Positions 1-12,389 are shown, counted from the first letter of the stretch. The stretch is DNA of 34,597 nucleotides from a virus (UHGV-0102868), one strand, 5' to 3'. Program-made: numbers and translations. The notes: generated by a model not told the origin, from the sequence alone.

Positions 1-1
1 T

Positions 2-130
2 GCATTACTGGCGGCGCAGGAAGCGTTGAGTACGGCAATTGATGCGCATGATGATGCAGTCCAGGCCGTTTACCGTAAAGCACATTTCAGCGGCGGCGGG
101 TCGCCTGGCGATTCTGTCGTAGTGCATTGA
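2..130 (+). CDS. 3' end of an upstream phage gene (partial, 42 codons, product unknown)
   Basis: Open frame runs off the 5' edge of the window and ends at TGA 128-130; no stop in 42 codons. Function not recognisable from this fragment. Confidence 0.3.
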   Translation, partial: ALLAAQEALSTAIDAHDDAVQAVYRKAHFSGGGSPGDSVVVH

Positions 131-207
131 TTGAAATTAATCGTGCCGGACTGTTTTGTTCGGTATCAGTTAAATGCAACGCTGCGTGCGTTACAAGGTG
201 AAAACAA

Positions 208-1338
208 ATGGCTTCAAACTGGATAAAGCTCGAAGTTATTACGCCGGATAAGCCGGAAATATTCAGGCTTGCTGAGATTCTGAATATTGATCCAGATGCC
301 GCATTAGGGAAAGTCATTCGCTTCTGGGCATGGGCGGATCAACAAATGATAGACGGTAACGCAGAGTGTAACGCTCGCGGCGTTACAAAAAGTGCAATAG
401 ATCGCATCACTTTTATGGCTGGTTTTGCTGATGCGTTAATTCAGGTTGGATGGCTGGTCGAAAATGACGGTGGGCTTTCGCTACCTAACTTTGAACGTCA
501 TAACGGAAAAAGCTCAAAAAAACGGGCGGTTACAAACGAGCGAGTAACAAAAATACGTGAACTGAAACGAAAAGGTAACGCTGCCAGCGTTACACAAACG
601 GATCAAAAAGCGTTACCAGAGGAAGAGGAAGAGGAAGATATAAATACTGATCTAACCCATCCCAAACCCTTCCCTTCCGGAAGGGAGTTCCGGGATTTTG
701 TGGCTGGAGTGCTTGAGGGGAGATTATCTGGCGGTACTGCAGCGGAATTTTGTAATTCTGCGGTGGTTGCGTTGCAGGCTGCTGGCCTGGATGTCTGTCG
801 TGAGTATCCGGTGCCAGAGCGTGGTGACGGCTGCGGAGGGCGGATTGATATCGTCGTGACTGACAGGAACGGTGTCCGGTGTGGGATCGAGCTTGACCGA
901 AATTCTCCGCGACAGAAATCACTGCTCAAAATCGGTGCTGTTGAAACCGGGATATGTGTCTTGCGGCGCAGTGATATCGCAAGGCACACCGAGCAGGGAA
1001 TTCTGGTTATCGGTGGGGCTGTTCGCCAGAAAAAATTTGACCCGTTGTCTGTTGATCTGCCCGACTGGTTGCCAGAAACACTCTGGCATGAGTGGGTTCA
1101 GTTCAGGCAGGCATTGCGAAAACCGATTCGAACGGAGCAGGGCGCTAACGGGGCGATACGGGAGCTGGAAAAATTCCGCCAGCAGGGTTTTACCCCTGAG
1201 CAGGTGATTAGACACAGCATCGCCAATGAATACCAGGGCTTGTTCGCGCCGAAAGGCGTTCGGCCTGAGACGTTGCTTCGACAGGTTAACACCGTCTCGT
1301 TTCCAGACAGTGCTATCCCACCAGGCTTCAGGGGGTAA
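208..1338 (+). CDS. putative phage replication initiation / replisome-organiser protein
   Basis: 376-aa ORF ending 7 nt before the DnaC-like loader gene; two domains joined by an acidic linker (EEEEEED). Assigned by gene order in lambdoid replication modules, not by a recognised motif. Confidence 0.55.
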   Translation: MASNWIKLEVITPDKPEIFRLAEILNIDPDAALGKVIRFWAWADQQMIDGNAECNARGVTKSAIDRITFMAGFADALIQVGWLVENDGGLSLPNFERHNGKSSKKRAVTNERVTKIRELKRKGNAASVTQTDQKALPEEEEEEDINTDLTHPKPFPSGREFRDFVAGVLEGRLSGGTAAEFCNSAVVALQAAGLDVCREYPVPERGDGCGGRIDIVVTDRNGVRCGIELDRNSPRQKSLLKIGAVETGICVLRRSDIARHTEQGILVIGGAVRQKKFDPLSVDLPDWLPETLWHEWVQFRQALRKPIRTEQGANGAIRELEKFRQQGFTPEQVIRHSIANEYQGLFAPKGVRPETLLRQVNTVSFPDSAIPPGFRG

Positions 1339-1344
1339 CTGACC

Positions 1345-2091
1345 ATGAAAAATATTGCGGCAGGCGGCGTTCTTGAACGTATCCGCAGACTGGCCCCGCC
1401 ACATGTAACCGCCCCATTCAAAACGGTAGCGGAGTGGCGCGAGTGGCAACTTGCAGAAGGCCAGAAACGTTGTGAGGAGATCAACCGTCAGAATCGTCAG
1501 TTGCGGGTGGAAAAAATCCTGAATCGCTCCGGCATCCAGCCGTTGCACCGCAAATGCTCGTTTGCGAATTACCAGGTGCAGAACGACGGCCAGCGATACG
1601 CGTTGAGTCAGGCGAAATCTATCGCTGACGAACTGGTTACCGGATGCACAAATTTCGCGTTCAGCGGAAAACCTGGTACCGGAAAAAACCATCTGGCGGC
1701 GGCTATCGGGAATCGCCTGCTGAAAGATGGCCAGACAGTGATTGTGGTTACCGTGGCTGATGTTATGAGCGCCCTGCACGCCAGCTATGACGACGGGCAG
1801 TCAGGCGAAAAATTTTTGCGGGAACTGTGCCAAGTGGATCTGCTGGTTCTTGATGAAATTGGCATTCAGCGCGAGACAAAAAACGAGCAGGTGGTGCTGC
1901 ACCAGATTGTTGATCGCCGGACAGCGTCGATGCGCAGCGTGGGGATGCTGACAAACCTGAACTATGAGGCCATGAAAACATTGCTCGGCGAGCGGATTAT
2001 GGATCGCATGACCATGAACGGCGGGCGATGGGTGAATTTTAACTGGGAGAGCTGGCGTCCGAATGTCGTCCAGCCAGGAATTGCGAAGTGA
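1345..2091 (+). CDS. DnaC-like helicase loader (IstB-like AAA+ ATPase)
   Basis: Translation contains Walker A ([13 protein letters not shown]) and Walker B (LLVLDEIG) motifs; size and position match phage DnaC-type loaders. Confidence 0.85.
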
Positions 2092-2113
2092 TTTTTACCG
2101 GGAGGAAATTTTA

Positions 2114-2869
2114 ATGGAAACCGTTTTTGATGCACTGAAAGCAATGGGAAAAGCCACGTCGGTAGAACTGGCTGCGCGACTTGATATCAGTCGTGAAGAA
2201 GTGCTGAACGAGCTGTGGGAACTTAAAAAGGCTGGCTTCGTTGATAAAAGCGTATACACCTGGCGTGTGGCTGATAACAACGTTCAGCAGGAACAGCCAG
2301 AGCAGGCAGAACTGCCGGAAGAAACCACCACGGCAACAGTAGCGAAAATCTCAGAGTGCGATTTAACCGCGACGATTGAACAACGTGGCCCACAAACGGC
2401 GGATGAACTGGCTACGTTTTTCGGCACCACATCACGCAAAGTGGCTTCAACGCTGGCAATGGCAATCAGCAAAGGCCGTCTGATTCGCGTTAATCAGAAC
2501 GGTAAATTTCGTTACTGCATGCCGGGCGATGATTTACCAGCAGAGCCGAAAGCTGCATCGGTAACGGAAACTGATGGTAAAGCCTTTCCTCAACCAGCAG
2601 GTGTTGCGTTACCGGGACAGGAAGCTGCAACACAGGAAGATATTAAAACAGAAACTGTGGCGGACATTGTGCAGTCGTTGCCATCGTTTACCGAAACGCG
2701 AGCGGATGACCTCGTTCTGCCATCGCTGCATATGGCAAACCGCGAACTGCGTCGGGCGAAAAATCATGTCCAGAAGTGGGAGCGTGTCTGCGCCGCGCTG
2801 CGGGAGCTGAACAAGCACCGGGATATTATCGCCCAGCTTTGCCAGGAGGCAACCAGTGAGCAAGATTGA
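2114..2869 (+). CDS. phage protein with two winged-helix-like repeats (nin/ea-region protein)
   Basis: ATG at 2114 preceded by GGAGG (2101-2105); chosen over the upstream in-frame start at 2063 because that start overlaps the DnaC-like gene. Two internally similar segments look like winged-helix folds. Confidence 0.55.
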
Positions 2870-3062
2870 CTACCAGGAATTGGCTGCTGCTAACGCTTTC
2901 TTGGCGGATGTGCGGGCTGGGGCGTTTAACGACCTTTGCGCGGCGTTTGTCAGGCACGCAAAAATTGCAGGACTGGACGATGGCGATCTCGTTACGGTGA
3001 AAGAAGCGACTGATGCGCTGCTGCACTGTGCAGAACAGCTTCGGGAGGGATTCAAGCAATGA
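2856..3062 (+). CDS. small hypothetical phage protein
   Basis: GTG start inside a GGAGGCAACCAGTGAGC junction motif that overlaps the end of the upstream gene; 68 codons. Confidence 0.45.
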
Positions 3063-3325
3063 GCGAATCAAAATGCCAGGTTTATGGCAATCAGATAGAG
3101 CCGTGTGCGGCACTGGCAAGGTCCCTTGAGCATGATGCTGAATACACGACGCGAAAAGGTCTGCTGAAATACAAAATCTATAACAATGAATTAATTTACT
3201 CACAAGACTTGATCATGCTGCGGTCAGGTGAATTTTCTAAATTACCGATTCGAGTTTCATTTTGCCCGTTCTGTGGTGAAAGCATTAAAACGTGGGAAGG
3301 GGAGGCAACCAGTGAGCGAAATTAA
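3059..3325 (+). CDS. small hypothetical phage protein (C-terminal Cys pair)
   Basis: ATGA start/stop overlap with the upstream gene; 88 codons; C-terminus carries CPFCGE. Confidence 0.45.
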   Translation: MSESKCQVYGNQIEPCAALARSLEHDAEYTTRKGLLKYKIYNNELIYSQDLIMLRSGEFSKLPIRVSFCPFCGESIKTWEGEATSERN

Positions 3326-3818
3326 TTACCAGGCACTGCGAATGGCGGCAGAAAATGCAACACCAGGCGAATGGTGTACTGATGACTACTATGGGGTAAT
3401 TGCTGATGCCGGACTGAATGGCAATTACTACATAGCATTATGCGCAGGACCAGATAAGCGCGCCAATAAGCGATTCATAGCCGCAGCCAATCCGGCTGCT
3501 GTGCTGGCATTACTGGATGAACTGGAAGCAGCAAAAAAGCGCATTGCAGAACTGGAAGCACGGGAAATAAAACCAGCCAAAGGCGAAGTTCTTGTCGTTG
3601 TATCTGGTTTTACTGGTTGCGGAAAAAGCGCCATTGCCGGGGAAATAGAAATCGCGATGAAGGCTATTGGTGTGCCGGTTAAGTGGACTAATGGCGATGC
3701 AGAAAAGCGCATGACCGGCGCTGACTGGCTGACAGCAATTGAGATGTACAAACCAACTGTGCGCATTGTGGAAGTTAATGTGCCACGCGTCGCTGGCGTT
3801 CGCATCAAAGGAGAGTGA
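3312..3818 (+). CDS. Ead/Ea22-like phage protein
   Basis: GTG start at 3312 inside the second copy of the GGAGGCAACCAGTGAGC junction motif; the N-terminus (SEINYQALR...) resembles Ead/Ea22-like prophage proteins as I remember them. The ORF-track start at 3228 would lie inside the upstream gene. Confidence 0.55.
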   Translation: MSEINYQALRMAAENATPGEWCTDDYYGVIADAGLNGNYYIALCAGPDKRANKRFIAAANPAAVLALLDELEAAKKRIAELEAREIKPAKGEVLVVVSGFTGCGKSAIAGEIEIAMKAIGVPVKWTNGDAEKRMTGADWLTAIEMYKPTVRIVEVNVPRVAGVRIKGE

Positions 3819-3819
3819 C

Positions 3820-4176
3820 GTGGAAATAAAACCAGAAGATGAGTTAAGTAATATTGTTTTATTTCCGGTAAAAGAGGATGACCCACGTAATCAGGTTAAT
3901 TTTCTTTATGAGCCATCGGAAAGACCATATTGCCATCACGCTTCTGTTCGGGTTGATGAAAAAGAGCGTCAGGTCCGCTGTAAAATCTGCGGTGCAGTTG
4001 TGGAGCCGTTTGACTGGATGCTCTCTGTGGCGAAAAGAGAAACCAGACTGGCAGATGATGTAAGGCTATTGCGTCAGGAGGAACGGGAAAGGCGGAAAAA
4101 TATAGAAAAGTTAATTCAGATTGAGCGTAACGCGAAAGCGCGGATACGCAGGGTGACAAAATCCAGAACTGAATAA
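3820..4176 (+). CDS. hypothetical protein with Cys/His zinc-finger-like motif
   Basis: GTG at 3820, 1 nt after the upstream stop; contains CHH...(14)...CKIC; basic coiled C-terminus. Confidence 0.45.
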   Translation: MEIKPEDELSNIVLFPVKEDDPRNQVNFLYEPSERPYCHHASVRVDEKERQVRCKICGAVVEPFDWMLSVAKRETRLADDVRLLRQEERERRKNIEKLIQIERNAKARIRRVTKSRTE

Positions 4177-4447
4177 TTAAATTTAGCACGGTTAAAAATT
4201 TAATCCTTTACCGGAGGGATTTCTGCACCCTCAGAACATCAGGAGGCCGTCTGAAAGGGCGGAACAGATAATGCTTACGTTGAAACATTTTATCGACATA
4301 CCAACATGGTTAGCCGTCATTGCTTTTGTTAAAATACACATCCACTTTTCTGTGCAATGTTTAACCACTGGTCATATCAAATGGCATTCATGCGAACCAT
4401 GATATAGAATCATGGCTTGAGAGAGTCGATGAAAGCGCAACTATGGT

Positions 4448-5026
4448 ATGAGAGACATTGATGTAAGAAAGGCTGTGCATGCCAAGATTCTGAGAGATCA
4501 TCATAAAGATCCTGACACCCTAATCATTGATGAGTTTACGATGAATCTAGGGGCTAGCAGAGCTGATATAGCAGTGATCAATGGGCTTATACATGGTTAT
4601 GAGTTGAAGAGCAAGAGTGATAACTTGCTCAGATTACCAGCGCAGGTGCAACATTACTCATCAGTGATGGATAAAGTAACTTTGGTTGTCTCTGATTGCC
4701 ATCTTTATGATGCTTTAAGCATAGTTCCATCATGGTGGGGGATAAAGCAAGTTACGCAAGGTGCACGGCAAGGTATCCATTTAAAAACAATTCGAACTAG
4801 CAAGTTGAATCCACAAGTGGACAAACTTTCCTTAACAATGCTTCTTTGGAAAGATGAATTGCTTTCCCTATTAAGTGATGTAGGGGAGCTACAGAATTTG
4901 AAAAATAAACCTAAACGCGTCTTATGGTCAAAACTCGCCAATAGTATGGATGTTGGCGAGCTTCGTGAAGCTGTTCGAGTTAAACTTAAAGCCCGTAAAG
5001 AGTGGCGAGTTGCTCAACAACCTTAG
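4448..5026 (+). CDS. uncharacterised protein, possible PD-(D/E)xK nuclease-fold (ORF-A)
   Basis: 192-aa ORF in visibly AT-rich DNA. Translation has D28/E29, D40 and E52-x-K54 (IIDEF ... RADIAVI ... YELKS), spaced like a restriction-endonuclease-type active site. An extended -10-like TGTTAAAAT lies upstream (4327-4335). Confidence 0.6.
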   Translation: MRDIDVRKAVHAKILRDHHKDPDTLIIDEFTMNLGASRADIAVINGLIHGYELKSKSDNLLRLPAQVQHYSSVMDKVTLVVSDCHLYDALSIVPSWWGIKQVTQGARQGIHLKTIRTSKLNPQVDKLSLTMLLWKDELLSLLSDVGELQNLKNKPKRVLWSKLANSMDVGELREAVRVKLKARKEWRVAQQP

Positions 5027-6083
5027 TTATGTGATGGTTTTGCCCAATCCTACGCCATACCTCTGGGCTACCAAATTTATAGTTACCAGAGGGATTGGCT
5101 TTGTAGGCTTGATACTCGTTTGCATAATATTCTATGTCTCTATCTCCCGCACAGAATGTAGGCCCTGAATATTCTCGATGAGCAAGAATATCCTCACTAT
5201 GTTTACCATATTGTTCATAACCAAAGCGATTAGCTACTCTTCCTCGAAATACCCAAAAGTCATTATCTCCAGAGTATCTGACGCTGGCAGATACGCTAGG
5301 GAATCGCGTCGAAAGCCTATTAAAGTCGGGGTGCTGTACTCCATAATCACTATAAATCACATTTCTGGCAAGTTCTTTTCTATTCATTAAACTCTGCCAT
5401 AAAATCCACTCGATTCGAGGTTGAGAATATAGACCAACAGAAATATCACTGAGATCTGTAGGAAATGAACCCCCAGAAAGAATCACTTTTCTGTATTCAT
5501 TGAGGTGCGCCAGATTGTTTATCAATCCCATTGCCAAAGTATATAGTTCGCCGGAATTAAGTTTATCCTCGGTTAACTCATCTCTTAAGTCAATAATTAT
5601 ATCAATATTTGATAAAGGAATTCCTAGATGATTAATGTAATGCGTTATTAATTGTGGGTTAACCAGATCTAACGTGGTTAATCTCAAGCATATTTCATTC
5701 TGCATTAATTCATCAATCGCTCTTTTATAGTTAGATGGGCGAGTTGGTGAACTGACAGGAATAACTCTTATCCCCATATCTCTAACTTGATTAACCGCAT
5801 TTATTATAGGGTAATGATCTTCAGGAGAAATAAAATGCTCTTCAATTAATAATCCATCAATATAAACACCTTGCATATCTGAGCAAGATTTTGAGACTTT
5901 CTTTCCGAACTCTATAAGAGTCTCGTTATAACTCTTTAAGGCAATACCTGAATCAGGGTCAATTGGCACTGGTTCAATTTCGAGTAATGGCAAAATTTTT
6001 GATTTCTTTTCAATGGATAGCTGCGATAAAGCTGATAACTCAGAACGTTTCGCTTTCAGAATAGGAATATATGAAATTGCCAT
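4986..6083 (-). CDS. uncharacterised 365-aa protein (ORF-B), convergent partner of ORF-A
   Basis: Long uninterrupted minus-strand ORF, the only convincing minus-strand gene in the window. AT-rich. Its 3' end overlaps the ORF-A 3' end by 41 bp. No motif I can name with confidence. Confidence 0.7.
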   Translation of the reverse strand: MAISYIPILKAKRSELSALSQLSIEKKSKILPLLEIEPVPIDPDSGIALKSYNETLIEFGKKVSKSCSDMQGVYIDGLLIEEHFISPEDHYPIINAVNQVRDMGIRVIPVSSPTRPSNYKRAIDELMQNEICLRLTTLDLVNPQLITHYINHLGIPLSNIDIIIDLRDELTEDKLNSGELYTLAMGLINNLAHLNEYRKVILSGGSFPTDLSDISVGLYSQPRIEWILWQSLMNRKELARNVIYSDYGVQHPDFNRLSTRFPSVSASVRYSGDNDFWVFRGRVANRFGYEQYGKHSEDILAHREYSGPTFCAGDRDIEYYANEYQAYKANPSGNYKFGSPEVWRRIGQNHHITKVVEQLATLYGL

Positions 6084-6435
6084 GTTAATACCTTATACAG
6101 AATCAATTAACAATTAATGGTTCTTCGGACATTGAAATTTATATCGCAAAAATTGGCAAACTCTCCTCGACTACTCACTTGTGGGTATCCTGGCGTAAAA
6201 GGAATGACTTGGCAATACCCGGTGTGATCATAAGTCATTGAAAATGATCATTTTTATCAGTCTTTCTTCCATGATGAATGCTAATGCCATTTGATTTGTT
6301 GAGGTAAAAACTGTTAAAAATCAAAACGATGTAATTGAAATGAACGTTCGGTAGCATTCACGCTTTAAATGTTTCTTTTGTGCTGATTGGATGAATTTTG
6401 GTCACTTATGATGAGAGATGTTGCAGGAAAAGAAG

Positions 6436-6464
6436 TTGGCATTGATCTATTGGATAGTTAGAAT
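6436..6464 (+). promoter_or_regulatory. candidate sigma70 promoter of the hok mRNA
   Basis: -35 TTGGCA (6436-6441), 17-nt spacer, -10 TAGAAT (6459-6464). The predicted start near 6471 coincides with the 5' element that pairs with the mRNA 3' end. Confidence 0.55.
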
Positions 6465-6639
6465 TGCTGCGGGTGCTTGAGGCTATCTGCCTCAGGCATG
6501 AACACCAAAGGCAGATAGAGAAAAGCCCCAGTTAACATTACGCGTCCTGCAAGACGCTTAACATTAATCTGAGGCTCAATCCATGCTGAACACATGTAGG
6601 TTAGCCTCTTACGTGCCGAAAGGCAAGGAGAAGCAGGCT

Positions 6640-6795
6640 ATGAAGCAGCAAAAGGCGATGTTAATCGCCCTGATCGTCATCTGTTTAACCATCATTGTGA
6701 CGGCACTGGTAACGAGGAAAGACCTCTGCGAGGTACGAATCCGAACCGGCCAGACGGAGGTCGCTGTCTTCACAGCTTACGAACCTGAGGAGTAA
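6640..6795 (+). CDS. hok: Hok/Gef-family type I toxin
   Basis: 51-aa product MKQQKAMLIALIVICLTIIVTALVTRKDLCEVRIRTGQTEVAVFTAYEPEE is a typical Hok/Gef membrane toxin (closest in my memory to HokD/RelF). RBS AAGGAG at 6624-6629. Confidence 0.85.
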   Translation: MKQQKAMLIALIVICLTIIVTALVTRKDLCEVRIRTGQTEVAVFTAYEPEE

Positions 6796-6860
6796 GAGAC
6801 CAGGCGGGGTAAACCCCCGCCACCTCTGATGTGTCAGGCATCCTCAACGCACCCGCACTT

Positions 6861-6884
6861 AACCCGCCTTGGCGGGTTTTTTTG
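6861..6884 (+). terminator. rho-independent terminator at the 3' end of the hok mRNA
   Basis: GC hairpin CCCGC-cttg-GCGGG followed by a T7 run. Confidence 0.6.
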
Positions 6885-7025
6885 TAATTGATAAAAAAAT
6901 TAACCAAAATGGTTTACATAAAATTCCTTTATGGTAAATTGATTCGCATGTAAGGGGGGAGCACACTACCGATCATACCCTCAACGAGCGCGCTCTATTA
7001 CTGACACTAAACTGAGGAATTACCT

Positions 7026-7379
7026 ATGGCACTCACTGAATTCGGTAAGGCCGTGAGAAAAGCGAGAATTGATACAGGTTATACACTTCTTACCATGGCA
7101 AAAGCATTGGGCACCACACCAGCTTTCTTGAGTGGGCTTGAAACTGGAGCAAAAAAGATTCCAGCAAAATGGGTTACGGCAATAAATGATTTACTTGCTG
7201 AGCAAGGGTACAAAATTGAAAACCTGGATTTGTTAGCCAATATTTCAAATGAGTCAATACCTGTTGAAGGTTTACCCTTGCAGCAACAGATGTTGGTTGC
7301 AGGATTTGCTAAATCAGAATTCACACATGAAGAATTGAAAAAGTTCGCTGAGCTTTTAGCGGAAATCAATAAGAAATAA
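7026..7379 (+). CDS. XRE-family helix-turn-helix transcriptional regulator
   Basis: N-terminal HTH-like segment (TGYTLLTMAKALGTTPAFLSGLETG); RBS GAGGA 7 nt upstream; the next gene starts 16 nt after its stop. Confidence 0.75.
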   Translation: MALTEFGKAVRKARIDTGYTLLTMAKALGTTPAFLSGLETGAKKIPAKWVTAINDLLAEQGYKIENLDLLANISNESIPVEGLPLQQQMLVAGFAKSEFTHEELKKFAELLAEINKK

Positions 7380-7395
7380 TTTTGGGGCCAATTTT

Positions 7396-7878
7396 ATGTA
7401 TCAAATGCGAGGGACAAGAGTCCAGCCATTAACCGAAATTGACATCAAAAACAAAGCTATAAATGCCTGTTTTGCTTTGGGATTTACAAGCAAGTATAAA
7501 TACCGTAGGCGTCCGAAGAGATTTGATATTGCTTTAGAAAAGCTGTCAGAGTGGAATATTGTTTTGGAGCCTATTGATGAGGCTGATTGGCTGGGACTTA
7601 CTCTTGGCTTAACCATTGGACATTGTGAGCCAGAGACATTGACAATAAGAGTGCCAAACCATATTTATGAAATGGCTTGTGCAGGAGAACGTAGTGCTTT
7701 ATTTGTTGTTTTTCATGAGTTAGGTCATTTGCTTCTTCAGCATAAACCAGCACTGCATTTTTCAAATACCCCACCGGAGCAAAACGAAGACTCTGAGTGG
7801 CAGGCTGATTTATTTGCAGATGTGATGTTGGAAAAATTAGGATATGAAACAGCACAACTTTGCTTCGATTTTTATTAA
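7396..7878 (+). CDS. ImmA/IrrE-family Zn metallopeptidase (HEXXH)
   Basis: Translation contains FHELGHLLLQH (HEXXH) in a 160-aa protein directly downstream of an XRE HTH gene, the usual ImmR/ImmA-type arrangement. Confidence 0.75.
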   Translation: MYQMRGTRVQPLTEIDIKNKAINACFALGFTSKYKYRRRPKRFDIALEKLSEWNIVLEPIDEADWLGLTLGLTIGHCEPETLTIRVPNHIYEMACAGERSALFVVFHELGHLLLQHKPALHFSNTPPEQNEDSEWQADLFADVMLEKLGYETAQLCFDFY

Positions 7879-8000
7879 AAAGCCCTGCAATAGCAGGGCT
7901 TAGATTCGGAAAGCCTAGGAAACTTTCCTGTGTATGATGGAGATCCCCACCGCTACACTTAGAATTGACAGAAGTGAGTCTAGCGGTTCTCTCAATAAAT

Positions 8001-8028
8001 TGCAACCTGTATGGGGATACAGGTTGCA
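8001..8028 (+). repeat. perfect 12-bp inverted repeat with a 4-nt GGGG loop
   Basis: TGCAACCTGTAT-GGGG-ATACAGGTTGCA read directly; it sits just upstream of the RBS and start of the small Zn-ribbon ORF. Confidence 0.7.
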
Positions 8029-8044
8029 GGGAGATGCTGTTGTT

Positions 8045-8194
8045 ATGGCTATGAAAACTTGTAAGAAATGTGGGAAACCGTGTGAAATTATTTTTCGTTA
8101 CTCTGCCTGTATCAACGGAGTTATGCGGTATGCGAGAAAAGGGCATCCTTTTCCGATTCCTGTCTGCGATTGCTCTGAACTTGGTGTCGCATAA
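8045..8194 (+). CDS. small Cys-rich (zinc-ribbon-like) protein, 49 aa
   Basis: ATG 8045 with RBS GGGAGA (8030-8035); CKKCGKPC ... CDC motifs; followed by a terminator. The ORF-track start at 7934 would read through the inverted repeat. Confidence 0.4.
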   Translation: MAMKTCKKCGKPCEIIFRYSACINGVMRYARKGHPFPIPVCDCSELGVA

Positions 8195-8202
8195 TGATCT
8201 AA

Positions 8203-8226
8203 AACCCGCTTTGGCGGGTTTTTTAC
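8203..8226 (+). terminator. rho-independent terminator closing the accessory island
   Basis: CCCGC-tttg-GCGGG hairpin followed by TTTTTT. Confidence 0.55.
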
Positions 8227-8386
8227 TTTTACAGATCAAGTTTTAGCCGATTCCTCCATTAAACCGACCTTCGTTTGTTGATAAGCGGGTATGCCTGACT
8301 AGAATCGATTCACTTAAGTAGCGCGCAGGGAGAAGAGGGATGGACCCCGAGCAGGGGAGTGCTATTTATCTGGAAGGATTCTGTTG

Positions 8387-8560
8387 ATGAAAATCGAAGA
8401 ATTGCGTGAAATTTTTAGTGAAAATGGCCTCTATGCTGTGCGCGTTGAGAATGGAGACGTTATCTACACAACGTTAATTCCTGATGATCATGTGATTTTA
8501 TCTATCGAGGCATTCATTGAATATCTGGAAAGGCTCGGTTTCAAGGTGGTTCGGGAATGA
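8387..8560 (+). CDS. small hypothetical protein (57 aa), absent from the ORF track
   Basis: ATG 8387 with RBS GGAAGGA 9 nt upstream; 57 sense codons ending TGA 8558-8560. Confidence 0.35.
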   Translation: MKIEELREIFSENGLYAVRVENGDVIYTTLIPDDHVILSIEAFIEYLERLGFKVVRE

Positions 8561-8619
8561 GTTATAATTCGTAAGCCAGCCTGAACAACTGGCAACCTAC
8601 AGCGCCATTGGAGATAACA

Positions 8620-9219
8620 ATGGCGCATATACAACTGGTCAAACAAACCTCTTCCGGATTACTTCTCCCGGCGACGCCGGAGAGTTGCGATTTTCTGCAT
8701 CAAATCAAAATAGGTGAGTGGATACACGCAGACTTTAAGCGTGTGCGTAACTACGCATTCCACAAGCGTTTTTTCAAACTCCTGCAACTGGGTTTCGATT
8801 ACTGGACTCCGGTCGGAGGGGCGATCACGCCTCGCGAACGAAAACTGGTTTCAGGATTCGTTGATTACCTGTGTGAATCAGTAGGCCGGGAACATACGCC
8901 AGCTCTGAGCGAAGCCGCAGAGCAATATCTGAATACAGTTGCGACACGCAGAACCCGGGATACGGCATTGCTAAAGTCGTTTGAGGCTTTCCGCGAGTGG
9001 GTAACCATTCAGGCCGGATTTTACACCGAGCATCTTTATCCTGATGGTAGTCGTGGGCGTCGGGCGAAATCCATCGCGTTTGCGAATATGGACGAAACCG
9101 AGTTTCAGCAGGTTTATAAATCTGTACTGAATGTGCTGTGGAACTGGATCCTGTTCCGTAAATTTTCCTCTCCGGAACAAGTCGAAAATGTGGCCGCGCA
9201 GCTGCTGGAGTTTGCGTAA
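8620..9219 (+). CDS. conserved lambdoid nin-region protein (DUF1367-like, by recollection)
   Basis: ATG 8620 with RBS GGAGAT; its stop overlaps the next start (TAATG). Family assignment is from memory of lambdoid nin regions, not a search. Confidence 0.55.
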   Translation: MAHIQLVKQTSSGLLLPATPESCDFLHQIKIGEWIHADFKRVRNYAFHKRFFKLLQLGFDYWTPVGGAITPRERKLVSGFVDYLCESVGREHTPALSEAAEQYLNTVATRRTRDTALLKSFEAFREWVTIQAGFYTEHLYPDGSRGRRAKSIAFANMDETEFQQVYKSVLNVLWNWILFRKFSSPEQVENVAAQLLEFA

Positions 9220-9509
9220 TGGTGAATTTATGTAAAGCGGCGCGGGGCCAGATGTGCCAGGTCAGAATTCCTGGCTACTGCAATCACAATCCTGAAACGT
9301 CTGTACTGGCGCATTACCGGCTGGCGGGAACGTGCGGAACCGCGATAAAGCCACACGATATGCAGGCGGCGATTGCCTGTAGCTCATGCCACGATTTAAT
9401 CGACGGGAGAGTAAAAACCAGCGATTACACCAAAGAAGAATTACGCCTGATGCATGCAGAAGGTGTTTTTCGCACACAAGAAATCTGGAGAAAGGAAGGT
9501 TATTTATGA
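9219..9509 (+). CDS. conserved lambdoid nin-region protein with Cys/His cluster (DUF1364-like, by recollection)
   Basis: 96 aa with CNHNPE ... CSSCHD motifs; ATGA overlap with the downstream gene. Confidence 0.55.
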   Translation: MVNLCKAARGQMCQVRIPGYCNHNPETSVLAHYRLAGTCGTAIKPHDMQAAIACSSCHDLIDGRVKTSDYTKEELRLMHAEGVFRTQEIWRKEGYL

Positions 9510-10048
9510 TTTACCCAACAAATACAGGAAAAAGCGGGGAACACCTTCGTCTCACCACGCTGGAAAGTGTCTGGATTCAGGGGAAACTGCGTATGTGGGG
9601 GCGCTGGTCGTATATTGGCGGCGGTAAGACGGGGAATATGTTTAACCAGTTGCTGGCATCCAAAAAATTGACGAAAACAGCCATCAATGAAGCCCTGCGC
9701 AGAATGAAAAAAGCGGGAATGGATAAAATTGAGCTGGCGATATATTTTCGTGAGATGATCGAAGGAAAGCAAAAAAGCTGGCTGGCGCATTGTACGGATG
9801 CGGAGGCGTTATGCATTGATCGGGTGATTAGTGAAGTGCTGGCAAAACACCCAGGATTGATTTGTATCCTCCGGCAACGATATGAAGGGAGGGGGATGAC
9901 TAAGCGTAAAATGGCTGAATTGCTGAATGATGCACATCCTGAGTGGTGTTTTAGCACATGCGAAAAGCGAATTGCTAATTGGTTAGCCGTTGCTGAATAT
10001 GCCCTGTATATTCCCATGCGAGAATCATTTGCTCAAAAAATAGCTTGA
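9506..10048 (+). CDS. putative late-gene antiterminator (Q-like)
   Basis: Strong RBS AAGGAAGG (9492-9499); last gene before a terminator, the tRNAs and the lysis cassette; an LRMWGRW segment is reminiscent of Q-family proteins. Assignment is mainly positional. Confidence 0.45.
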   Translation: MIYPTNTGKSGEHLRLTTLESVWIQGKLRMWGRWSYIGGGKTGNMFNQLLASKKLTKTAINEALRRMKKAGMDKIELAIYFREMIEGKQKSWLAHCTDAEALCIDRVISEVLAKHPGLICILRQRYEGRGMTKRKMAELLNDAHPEWCFSTCEKRIANWLAVAEYALYIPMRESFAQKIA

Positions 10049-10131
10049 TTTTTTACGCATAAATTGCTTCAATTCCGGTATGCTTCGCAAAGCTGTATCG
10101 CGAGGCGAACCAAGCGCATGAACTTTACCAG

Positions 10132-10161
10132 AACCCGCCATTGAGCGGGTTTTGTTGTTTC
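10132..10161 (+). terminator. intrinsic terminator downstream of the Q-like gene (tR'-like candidate)
   Basis: CCCGC-cattga-GCGGG hairpin followed by TTTTGTTGTTT. Confidence 0.5.
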
Positions 10162-10374
10162 TGGGGGGGCATTTCGTTAAATGAAGCTGTGTTGTGCGCA
10201 ATTAGCTAATAACACGAATCGTGAATGTATATAATGCGCTTGTTCCTTCGATGGTGTATTCGAATAACGGATTACTGAATACAGCTATCCCATTAAGGGA
10301 ACACCGCCATCTGCTCATCGGGAAGAGCCGACCATCATTTAAGTGGTAGTTCGATACCTCGGTGGCGGTTCTGT

Positions 10375-10450
<76 letters not shown>

Positions 10451-10453
10451 TAT

Positions 10454-10528
<75 letters not shown>

Positions 10529-10803
10529 GCATTTGAAATAAGCCTTATTGTATTGCAGCACTGGCGTATTTTTATTACGTGGGAGCAGGTTGTTTCGAAA
10601 AAGTATTCTGTTCTCTGGCTATGATTTGAGGCCAGGTGTAGCCTCAGTGCTGATTTTTTTACGGCAGCAGAATGGTGCATTATCGGTGGAGATTTTGTAT
10701 TTCCTGGCAGGGCCGGTGATGTGCCATCCCGATGTTGTAAACATCGCTAAAAATGACATTGAGATTAATCATATACTAAGCAAAACCTGGAAATACATCC
10801 TTT

Positions 10804-10830
10804 ACCGCCTCCACCGGGCGGTTTTTTTTA
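10804..10830 (+). terminator. intrinsic terminator downstream of the tRNA pair
   Basis: ACCGCC-tccacc-GGGCGGT hairpin followed by a T8 run. Confidence 0.5.
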
Positions 10831-11215
10831 TTCTGAACCCTAAAAAAAGAAACACGGACACTGATAATGCCCGTGTGGCAATGCCATGTAAGTTAGCGAT
10901 GAATATGGCGCAAAAAAAAGCGCGGCCGTCGGATTAACGCCGCGGGACAAAGTCCATGAAGACTCATAAGTATTGGCCCCCTTCTGGGGACATGTTCATA
11001 CTACTAAGCTTCAGAAGTGGTTTAAATCATCAAATTAACCTTAATTTTCGATAAGTCTTATTTCATTTCTTTGCGCCACATCTGGCGCGCATCAAATAAC
11101 GCCACGCAAAGGGCATCTGCGGATGCCGGTGCTTTTGACGGGGTGTTTTTTACGGGCCGCTGGTGGCCATTTTTTGTTTCCATTACACAGCGCCCGCATC
11201 TGCGAGGTGGGGGTT

Positions 11216-11431
11216 ATGAAATCCATGGATAAGTTAACAACGGGTGTCGCCTATGGCACCTCCGCAGGCAGTGCTGGCTACTGGTTTTTACAGTTGCTCG
11301 ATAGAGTAACTCCGTCACAGTGGGCTGCAATCGGTGTGCTGGGTAGTCTGGTTTTTGGCCTGCTGACGTACCTGACAAACCTTTATTTCAAGATTAAAGA
11401 AGATAAGCGCAAGGCTGCGAGAGGTGAATAA
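11216..11431 (+). CDS. S: phage-21-type pinholin (S21-like), dual-start MKSM motif
   Basis: 71-aa product [26 protein letters not shown]... with two transmembrane segments and a charged C-terminus; start chosen at ATG 11216 rather than the ORF-track start at 11123. Confidence 0.85.
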
Positions 11432-11928
11432 TGCCTCCATCATTACGAAAAGCCGTTGCTGCTGCTATTGGTGGCGGAGCAATTGCTATAGCATCAGTGT
11501 TAATCACTGGCCCAAGTGGTAACGATGGTCTGGAAGGTGTCAGCTACATACCATACAAAGATATTGTTGGTGTATGGACTGTATGTCACGGGCATACAGG
11601 AAAAGACATCATGCTCGGTAAAACGTATACCGAAGCAGAGTGCAAAGCCCTCCTGAATAAAGACCTTGCCACTGTCGCCAGACAAATTAACCCGTATATC
11701 GAAGTCGATATACCGGAAACAACGCGCGGCGCTCTTTACTCATTCGTTTACAACGTGGGTGCTGGCAATTTCAGAACATCGACGCTTCTTCGCAAAATAA
11801 ACCAGGGCGATATCAAAGGCGCATGTGATCAGCTACGTCGCTGGACATATGCTGGCGGTAAGCAATGGAAAGGTCTCATGACTCGTCGTGAGATTGAGCG
11901 TGAAATCTGTTTGTGGGGTCAGCAATGA
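11431..11928 (+). CDS. R: SAR endolysin (lysozyme with N-terminal signal-anchor-release domain)
   Basis: Gly/Ala-rich N-terminal hydrophobic segment ([20 protein letters not shown]) followed by a lysozyme-like domain; TAATG overlap with the holin stop. Confidence 0.85.
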
Positions 11929-12389
11929 ACAGAGTAACCGCGATTATCTCCGCTCTGGTTATCTGCATCATCGTCTGCCTGTCATGGGCTGTTAATCATT
12001 ACCGTGATAACGCCATTACCTACAAAGCCCAGCGCGACAAAAATGCCAGAGAACTGAAGCTGGCGAACTCGACAATTACTGACATGCAGATGCGTCAGCG
12101 TGATGTTGCTGCGCTCGATGCAAAATACACGAAGGAGTTAGCTGATGCGAAAGCTGAAAATGATGCTCTGCGTGATGATGTTGCCGCTGGTCGTCGTCGG
12201 TTGCACATCAAAGCAGTCTGTCAGTCAGTGCGTGAAGCCACCACCGCCTCCGGCGTGGATAATGCAGCCTCCCCCCGACTGGCAGACACCGCTGAACGGG
12301 ATTATTTCACCCTCCGGGAACGACTGGTAATGATGCAGGCCCAACTTGAAGGTGCTCAGCAATACATAACCGAACAGTGTTTAAAGTAA
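11925..12389 (+). CDS. Rz: i-spanin Rz
   Basis: N-terminal transmembrane segment then coiled-coil; ATGA overlap with the endolysin stop; position in the lysis cassette. Confidence 0.8.
12145..12330 (+). CDS. Rz1: o-spanin Rz1 (lipoprotein nested in the +1 frame of Rz)
   Basis: Signal peptide with lipobox VVGC, then a proline-rich stretch [16 protein letters not shown]; wholly embedded in Rz. Confidence 0.8.

Follow-up and report, generated by a model that had tools for sequence, protein, structure and literature searches.

A convergent, 3′-overlapping beta–cII gene pair carried as cargo by a Rac-type prophage: a candidate minimal anti-phage module

The viral sequence UHGV-0102868, a stretch of 34,597 nucleotides referred to here as the window, carries a convergent pair of open reading frames (ORFs) with overlapping 3′ ends. 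A first-pass annotation, made from the sequence alone, had singled out this pair as a candidate undescribed anti-phage or abortive-infection module. Its description of the locus was accurate in coordinates, lengths and strands: ORF-A was found at 4448..5026 on the plus strand and ORF-B at 4986..6083 on the minus strand, both start with ATG, and they share 41 bp at their 3′ ends. It had also described ORF-B as the only convincing minus-strand gene of the prophage, which agrees, in a non-exhaustive check, with the list of ORFs and the annotation of relatives. Both proteins gave full-length matches to curated families, so ORF-A and ORF-B are real genes rather than chance ORFs, and both are 60-80% identical across Enterobacterales with no frameshifts. 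The features of the locus are the following.

4448..5026, plus strand: ORF-A, 192 amino acids (aa), P4 cII/sce7726-family protein, predicted PD-(D/E)xK nuclease with a C-terminal helical domain
4986..6083, minus strand: ORF-B, 365 aa, beta-family protein, predicted TIM barrel with C-terminal helices
4986..5026, both strands: 3′ overlap, 41 nt of antiparallel dual-coding DNA (ORF-A residues 180-192 and stop; ORF-B residues 353-365 and stop)
4263..6458, no strand: mobile AT-rich cassette of 2,196 bp, comprising the two genes and their upstream regions, with edges set by prophage comparison
4381..4410, plus strand: weak promoter-like site 5′ of ORF-A, ATGGCA-18-TAGAAT, 9/12 consensus matches

The ORF-A protein matched the NCBIfam family sce7726 over its full length (1.7e-56, 191.1 bits, cut-off 70), the PADLOC model 'cll' (PDLC02989, 2.4e-28) and phrog_984, and it shares 28% identity with cII of the satellite phage P4 (BLASTP, E 2e-17). 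Its homologues are annotated, in precomputed assignments, with the newer Pfam family PF26915, Phage_P4_cII. From the spacing of acidic and lysine residues, the first-pass annotation had proposed a PD-(D/E)xK nuclease core consisting of D28/E29, D40 and E52-x-K54. At the structure level the fold is indeed restriction-endonuclease-like, an alpha/beta fold of the PD-(D/E)xK type, and E29, D40, E52, K54, D58, R62 and Q66 are invariant in 81/81 complete homologues from every architecture, so the D40/E52-x-K54 core had been read correctly. The D28/E29 pair stood in part: E29 is invariant, whereas D28 is nearly invariant and is N in P4 cII. Position 70 is Y or F among the 81 homologues, and the Q66xxxY70 motif is reminiscent of RecB/Cas4-type nucleases. 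No sequence-level match of ORF-A to solved structures or to Pfam MmcB-like was recovered in the library searched. The link to these proteins comes from the fold and from Rousset's HHpred table, in which P4 cII is MmcB-like at 99.8% probability (PMC9122126). ORF-A differs from PD-(D/E)xK nucleases of the MmcB-like, NucS or Can2 type by its own C-terminal helical domain and its obligate TIM-barrel partner. As modelled, it adopts the PD-(D/E)xK fold and its active site is intact and invariant; nuclease activity is predicted for it.

The ORF-B protein matched Pfam Beta_protein (PF14350) over its full length (2.4e-52, 179 bits, cut-off 27) and phrog_9159 (6.7e-145), and it aligned over its whole length with P4 beta (BLASTP, 23% identity, E 1e-8). 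Its best PADLOC match was PD-Lambda-2_C, represented by two models that both cover the full length (PDLC03983, 1.5e-41; PDLC03984, 4.1e-38). A TIM barrel was predicted, and the invariant residues K12, E15, D76, R134, D165, R223, D246 and R269, all of them polar, map in the model to the ends of the barrel strands. Neither the beta family nor the cII family has a sequence relative among solved structures. The first-pass annotation had pointed, without certainty, to an uncharacterised family with a YxPxLKxKR N-terminus and a small nuclease-like partner; this is the pair formed by Beta_protein/sce7725 and sce7726 (NF033831/NF033832). ORF-A is above the cut-off of that family, which is defined with an adjacent partner. 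ORF-B, in contrast, stays below the sce7725 cut-off (E 0.099, 12.3 versus 60 bits, first 35 residues only) and is a beta of a different subfamily, and the NCBIfam names come without a function attached.

The element hosting the pair is a Rac-type lambdoid prophage, judged from the surrounding genes. A DnaC/IstB-like ATPase, DUF1627 and an Ead/Ea22-like protein are encoded 5′ of the pair, and hok/sok and DUF1367 (nin-type region), followed by the late genes, are found 3′ of it. This location between replication/Ead-like genes and hok/sok with DUF1367 is the nin/ea-type slot for variable cargo that had been proposed, and the contrast in base composition that had been pointed out is also present, the G+C content being 0.34-0.41 over 4250-6500 versus 0.47-0.55 in the adjoining replication genes. 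In a comparison with a cassette-free Rac-like prophage (L003), homology ends at 4262 and restarts at 6459. The cassette was found in 93/5,426 complete Escherichia coli genomes (1.7%), while the ~60 bp on either side are present in thousands, and it is lacking in prophages that are nearly identical apart from it. The slot is therefore variable, which answers one of the checks that the first-pass annotation had suggested, and the two genes are cargo that the prophage acquired horizontally.

The organization of the pair was surveyed in 80 loci of beta relatives, one genome per species, and in 59 loci from viral contigs (~140 in total), which together cover Enterobacterales, Bacillota, Myxococcota, phages of Actinomycetota, bacteria of the candidate phyla radiation (CPR) and a metagenome-assembled genome (MAG) of the archaeon Methanosuratincola. 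A cII homologue was located directly 3′ of beta, in convergent orientation, in 84/86 beta-containing sequences; the other two end 29 and 101 nt further on, at contig ends. Adjacency and convergence were also found in all intact viral loci. The question of whether the two genes are always inherited together, another suggested check, can thus be answered positively for all intact loci in the survey. The overlap ranges from 20 to 140 nt, and its length is always 2 mod 3 (80/80 genome and 55/55 viral loci, 135/135 together), a count that reflects conservation rather than independent events because the loci are related by descent. The only loci lacking an overlap were P4, with a 27-nt gap, and one fragmentary contig. 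The codon phase is kept from Enterobacterales to CPR bacteria, phages and the archaeon, so the overlap is ancestral. Among Enterobacterales its nucleotide identity is 0.83, versus 0.72-0.73 in the flanking single-coding sequence. The convergent layout is ancestral for the module, P4 included, and is not peculiar to the prophage in the window.

Given this arrangement, the two transcripts must be mutually antisense at their 3′ ends, as the positions of the genes imply. The possibility that the overlap contains structured RNA or a bidirectional terminator, comparable to the terminator annotated in P4, was rejected: the overlap shows no terminator-like hairpin or unusually stable RNA structure (z -0.5 to -1.1). 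An Rfam scan detected no families inside the cassette. Variation among close relatives was also observed. In some near-identical E. coli copies on viral contigs (L097, L098, L116) the cII stop codon is located two codons earlier, which gives a 35-nt overlap in the same phase. Two prophage copies (L126, L128) have a truncated beta, with cII rearranged or missing, and so the cassette can decay.

Clustering of neighbouring ORFs identified three kinds of additional genes 5′ of beta and on the same strand. These encode a ~400-aa protein that corresponds to PADLOC PD-Lambda-2_B (2e-143, 42 loci), a 95-aa PD-Lambda-2_A (4.3e-36, 20 loci) and a PIN-like protein of ~207 aa (14 loci). The loci were classified as bare pairs (37, of which 4 have too little upstream sequence to judge, so 33 are adequate), HigB with Xre-peptidase (18), Xre-peptidase with PIN (14), Xre-peptidase alone (10), HigB alone (2) and gop (1). 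Loci decorated with HigB and/or Xre-peptidase and/or PIN therefore number 44 versus 37 bare ones, and all phage-borne pairs are bare (55/55). The class counts and the uniformly bare phage-borne pairs indicated that the two-gene form is a stable and widespread architecture, not a remnant. The PIN-like family (DTD...GEAQ...GDKRAL motifs; L044, L047, L051, L052, L064-L068, L076, L081-L086) is encoded between the Xre-peptidase gene and beta and has no PADLOC match; it could represent a component, so far unlisted, of yet another variant of the system.

The pair in the window belongs to the bare class. No PADLOC match to gop, PD-Lambda-2_A or PD-Lambda-2_B was found among its neighbours, including a 40-aa ORF just 5′ of ORF-B, with models that scored P4 gop at 4.8e-70 and found survey homologues at 4.3e-36 (PD-Lambda-2_A) and 2e-143 (PD-Lambda-2_B). 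There is no same-strand ORF of at least 50 aa within 400 nt 5′ of ORF-B, and the DNA that precedes either gene shows no conservation between genera. The possibility that the cassette hides a third gene, gop-like or otherwise, was rejected on these grounds, and a phmmer search for gop in the 59 viral loci returned nothing. The helix-turn-helix (HTH) and M78 peptidase genes further along the window (7026-7379 and 7396-7878) were considered as a split PD-lambda-2B and rejected, since neither matches PD-Lambda-2_B. Their membership in the module is also contradicted by their strand, opposite to that of ORF-B, by their location 0.94 kb away beyond hok/sok, and by their arrival in a separate insertion that is missing in ~25 other cassette copies.

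Bare pairs occupy a variety of sites. In the window and in other E. coli strains the pair is in the Rac nin-type slot, with differing neighbours on both sides, and a second E. coli subtype, also lambdoid, has it between the lysis genes and terminase Nu1. In Dickeya it was found in the P2 gpA-portal hotspot beside HicAB, and in Gordonia phage Powerball in the integrase/immunity region, where the cII homologue (42% identity) is annotated as 'exonuclease'. It is also present on plasmids of Rhodococcus, Bacillus and rhizobia and in chromosomal islets of Cronobacter. In other taxa, the genes found near bare pairs include BrxL, Pycsar PycC/PycTM, IetA/IetS, DrmD, methyltransferases, HicAB, resolvases, integrases and phage genes. 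The HicA/HicB genes of the Dickeya P2-like prophage (L005:7968-8585) and of phage Powerball (L094:6302-6894) are within ~1 kb of the cII side; they were not seen beside the other sampled loci, and this proximity may be a coincidence.

Homologues of both genes are found in two systems with demonstrated activity. The P4 hotspot is non-essential, and a clone with gop, beta and cII protects against lambda and P1 (Rousset 2022, PMC9122126). The gop gene, whose product is listed as a protein with two transmembrane (TM) segments in Rousset's HHpred table (PMC9122126), is toxic without beta according to Ghisotti 1990 as cited in PMC9122126. Expression of the phage accessory gene orf184 leads to cell death through gop-beta-cII (Silas 2023 preprint, bioRxiv 10.1101/2023.04.06.535777). 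The P4 locus (Rst_gop_beta_cll) resembles the window in having both homologues in convergent orientation, conserved cII catalytic residues and a location in a variable cargo hotspot of a mobile element. It differs in several respects: the window is without gop, which in P4 immediately precedes beta and codes for a 2-TM toxin of 133 aa; P4 cII is longer than ORF-A by a C-terminal region of ~80 aa; and P4 beta (plus strand) and cII (minus strand) are separated by a 27-bp gap containing a terminator, where the window has an overlap instead.

The second system, PD-lambda-2, has been described as three genes that code for the HigB-like A, the Xre-peptidase fusion B and the beta-like C (Vassallo 2022, PMC9519451). 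B is toxic and is neutralised by A, and C is needed for defence against lambda-vir (PMC9519451). ORF-B matches component C, and natural loci of this type have the same convergent overlapping cII as the window, which, for its part, is without the HigB-like A and the Xre-peptidase B. As described, PD-lambda-2 consists of three co-directional genes with no cII listed. All surveyed loci with PD-lambda-2-type A and/or B (within L027-L086, for example L055:3400-6900, and L093:3282-6167) nevertheless also hold a convergent cII/sce7726 gene that overlaps the 3′ end of beta (C), so loci of this type have a fourth gene that is not listed in the published description. No PD-lambda-2-type homologue from E. 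coli was present among the 120 protein matches listed, and a distant blastn search of E. coli genomes found nothing; the Escherichia plasmid matches in the PD-lambda-2 search were ordinary HigA. The B-like Xre-peptidases are numerous (6,381 matches at E <= 1e-10) and the matches listed, from CPR bacteria, a Thaumarchaeota MAG, Scalindua and other sources, show 62-74% identity, a level that suggests a recent and wide horizontal spread of these proteins. HigB and ImmA/IrrE genes also precede unrelated cargo on a Paraburkholderia plasmid, an observation that fits a modular front end.

The reading of the pair with the best support is a role in anti-phage defence or abortive infection, because homologues of both genes belong to these validated systems. 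This part of the first-pass proposal stands; the qualifier 'undescribed' does not. Names for both families already exist in Pfam, NCBIfam, PADLOC and PHROGs; exactly this pair is annotated in RefSeq, ORF-A as 'sce7726 family protein' and ORF-B as 'beta family protein', and in phage Rac-SA53 the submitters called the two genes 'CII phage-like protein' and 'beta', respectively. We consider it rather probable that the cassette is a bare, minimal beta-cII module conferring prophage-borne immunity against other phages. The cassette (4263-6458) would then represent the conserved core common to P4 gop-beta-cII and PD-lambda-2. A division of roles in which the nuclease is the effector and beta the sensor or controller is a tentative assignment by analogy, to which we give somewhat less than even weight. 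The predicted nuclease, ORF-A, would be the only plausible effector in the cassette; ORF-B would sense infection and restrain the nuclease until then; and the triggered nuclease would cut nucleic acid and thereby stop the phage, either through direct degradation or through abortive infection. These roles fit the observations that beta curbs toxicity in P4, that it is needed in PD-lambda-2, and that a single phage protein triggers the P4 system. The phase-locked convergent overlap makes the two genes inseparable. Since transcription of either gene has to continue, in antisense, into its partner, the expression of the two is probably coupled as well, and we infer that the overlap may link expression in addition to inheritance.

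Several considerations weigh against this interpretation. The main one is that the proven toxic parts of both relatives, gop in P4 and the Xre-peptidase PD-lambda-2B, are absent from the window, which might leave the bare pair with no effector that kills. The published PD-lambda-2 clone stops 396 bp past the beta stop codon, which is too short for an intact convergent cII (~580-650 bp) with its catalytic N-terminus. That clone probably lacked an intact cII and yet protected, which would suggest, provided that its source strain ECOR42 carries the gene, that beta can act without cII. ORF-B gives just a weak match to the PADLOC 'beta' model of the P4 type (E 2e-4, limited to the N-terminus), so it is a beta of a subfamily different from that of P4 beta, and its TIM-barrel matches are generic, so that no substrate can be deduced from them. 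Promoter and terminator signals were nowhere above chance in a scan of the cassette region, and the count of promoter-like sites in a consensus scan was not above the shuffle expectation. To our knowledge, rules of the DefenseFinder or PADLOC type would not call the pair a system.

Other functions were weighed against the same observations. The pair could be an addiction or stabilisation cassette, with a nuclease toxin and beta as the antitoxin, that stabilises prophages, plasmids and islands and has no primary anti-phage role. A mobile, AT-rich cassette that is inseparable by design is what this explanation calls for; other toxin-antitoxin loci are found nearby, namely hok/sok in the window and HicAB in Dickeya and in Gordonia phage Powerball, and the P4 literature treats gop/beta as a toxin-antitoxin pair. 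Homologous systems, however, give measurable phage protection, and decayed prophage copies exist (L126, L128), so loss of the cassette is tolerated. Moreover, type II toxin-antitoxin genes are co-directional and co-transcribed, while beta and cII are convergent in every one of the ~140 loci, a layout that lacks an autoregulated operon and is atypical of that type. Toxin-antitoxin behaviour and defence can coexist. We regard a pure addiction role as unlikely. An arrangement resembling restriction-modification appears unlikely too, and slightly the more so: beta would be a DpdA/TGT-type barrel enzyme that marks self DNA or the nucleotide pool, cII would cut unmarked incoming DNA, and the overlap would balance the two activities, as in some convergent restriction-modification operons.

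A housekeeping function for the phage itself, in which an exonuclease and an accessory protein serve its own recombination, DNA processing or lysogeny control, would agree with the name of P4 cII, given as a lysogeny gene, with the 'exonuclease' annotation in phage Powerball, with the RecB/Cas4-like character of the Q66xxxY70 motif and with the location of the pair among prophage early genes. A gene pair with such a function would not be expected in just 1.7% of complete E. coli genomes or to be missing from otherwise near-identical prophages. The pair is also found away from phage genes, on plasmids, in chromosomal islets, in CPR bacteria and in the archaeon; it has been joined into defence operons with HigB and Xre-peptidase; and the P4 region is not essential. 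We consider this explanation very improbable.

The prophage-borne immunity module proposed here is not a new kind of system, because its families are named and the link to defence has been published for its decorated relatives. In the literature searched, no paper addressed the mechanism of beta or cII or the two-gene form. The bare two-gene form, its status as a conserved core, the universal phase-locked overlap and the presence of cII, unlisted so far, in PD-lambda-2-type loci appear to be new there. As the core common to two systems, free of extra toxin genes, the bare pair offers the simplest access to the actual roles of beta and cII. If the 2.2-kb cassette is protective by itself, detection rules that need gop or HigB/Xre-peptidase miss a widespread system, one that spans 1.7% of complete E. 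coli genomes, many other phyla and all phage-borne copies in this survey, and the component list of PD-lambda-2 needs a fourth gene. The universal convergent dual-coding overlap is an unusually clean natural case in which to study how an antisense 3′ overlap ties an effector to its controller, in inheritance as well as in expression. A bolder possibility, which we hold to be doubtful, is that beta-cII is an autonomous and very old two-gene immune core of bacteria, CPR bacteria, an archaeon and phages, in which the overlap is a working part: the two mRNAs would regulate each other in antisense and so fix the ratio of nuclease to beta, and gop, HigB/Xre-peptidase and PIN would be optional additions. 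If this were true, the real core would have escaped both the three-gene description of PD-lambda-2, which leaves out cII, and the interpretation of P4 gop/beta as no more than a toxin and its antitoxin.

Additional mobile elements were observed within and around the cassette. In phage Rac-SA53 (L002:5090-5855) an IS1 element is inserted inside the cassette ~160 bp 5′ of the cII start, with a duplication of AAACATTT (window 4283-4290); it interrupts a small ORF that is not conserved (4271-4402) and may also disrupt the promoter region of cII. The right edge of the cassette is directly adjoined by a type I toxin-antitoxin locus, hok/sok (Rfam sok, 1.3e-27, at 6471-6645), with a HokD-like ORF at 6583-6795 (Pfam HOK_GEF, 3e-23), and this locus is conserved beside the cassette in most E. 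coli copies. Beyond hok/sok there is a second, independent cargo insertion at ~6884-8290. Its products are an Xre-type HTH protein (7026-7379), an HExxH ImmA/IrrE (M78) peptidase with weak CapH/CapP-like PADLOC matches (7396-7878) and an 86-aa ORF (7934-8194). This insertion is missing in every related prophage compared, and other strains have a Doc-family toxin, rem or nothing at the same place. The best single-place match to window positions 1-12000 in the collection's complete E. coli genomes covers at most 59%; this part of the window is a mosaic of cargo and backbone segments in a combination absent from that collection.

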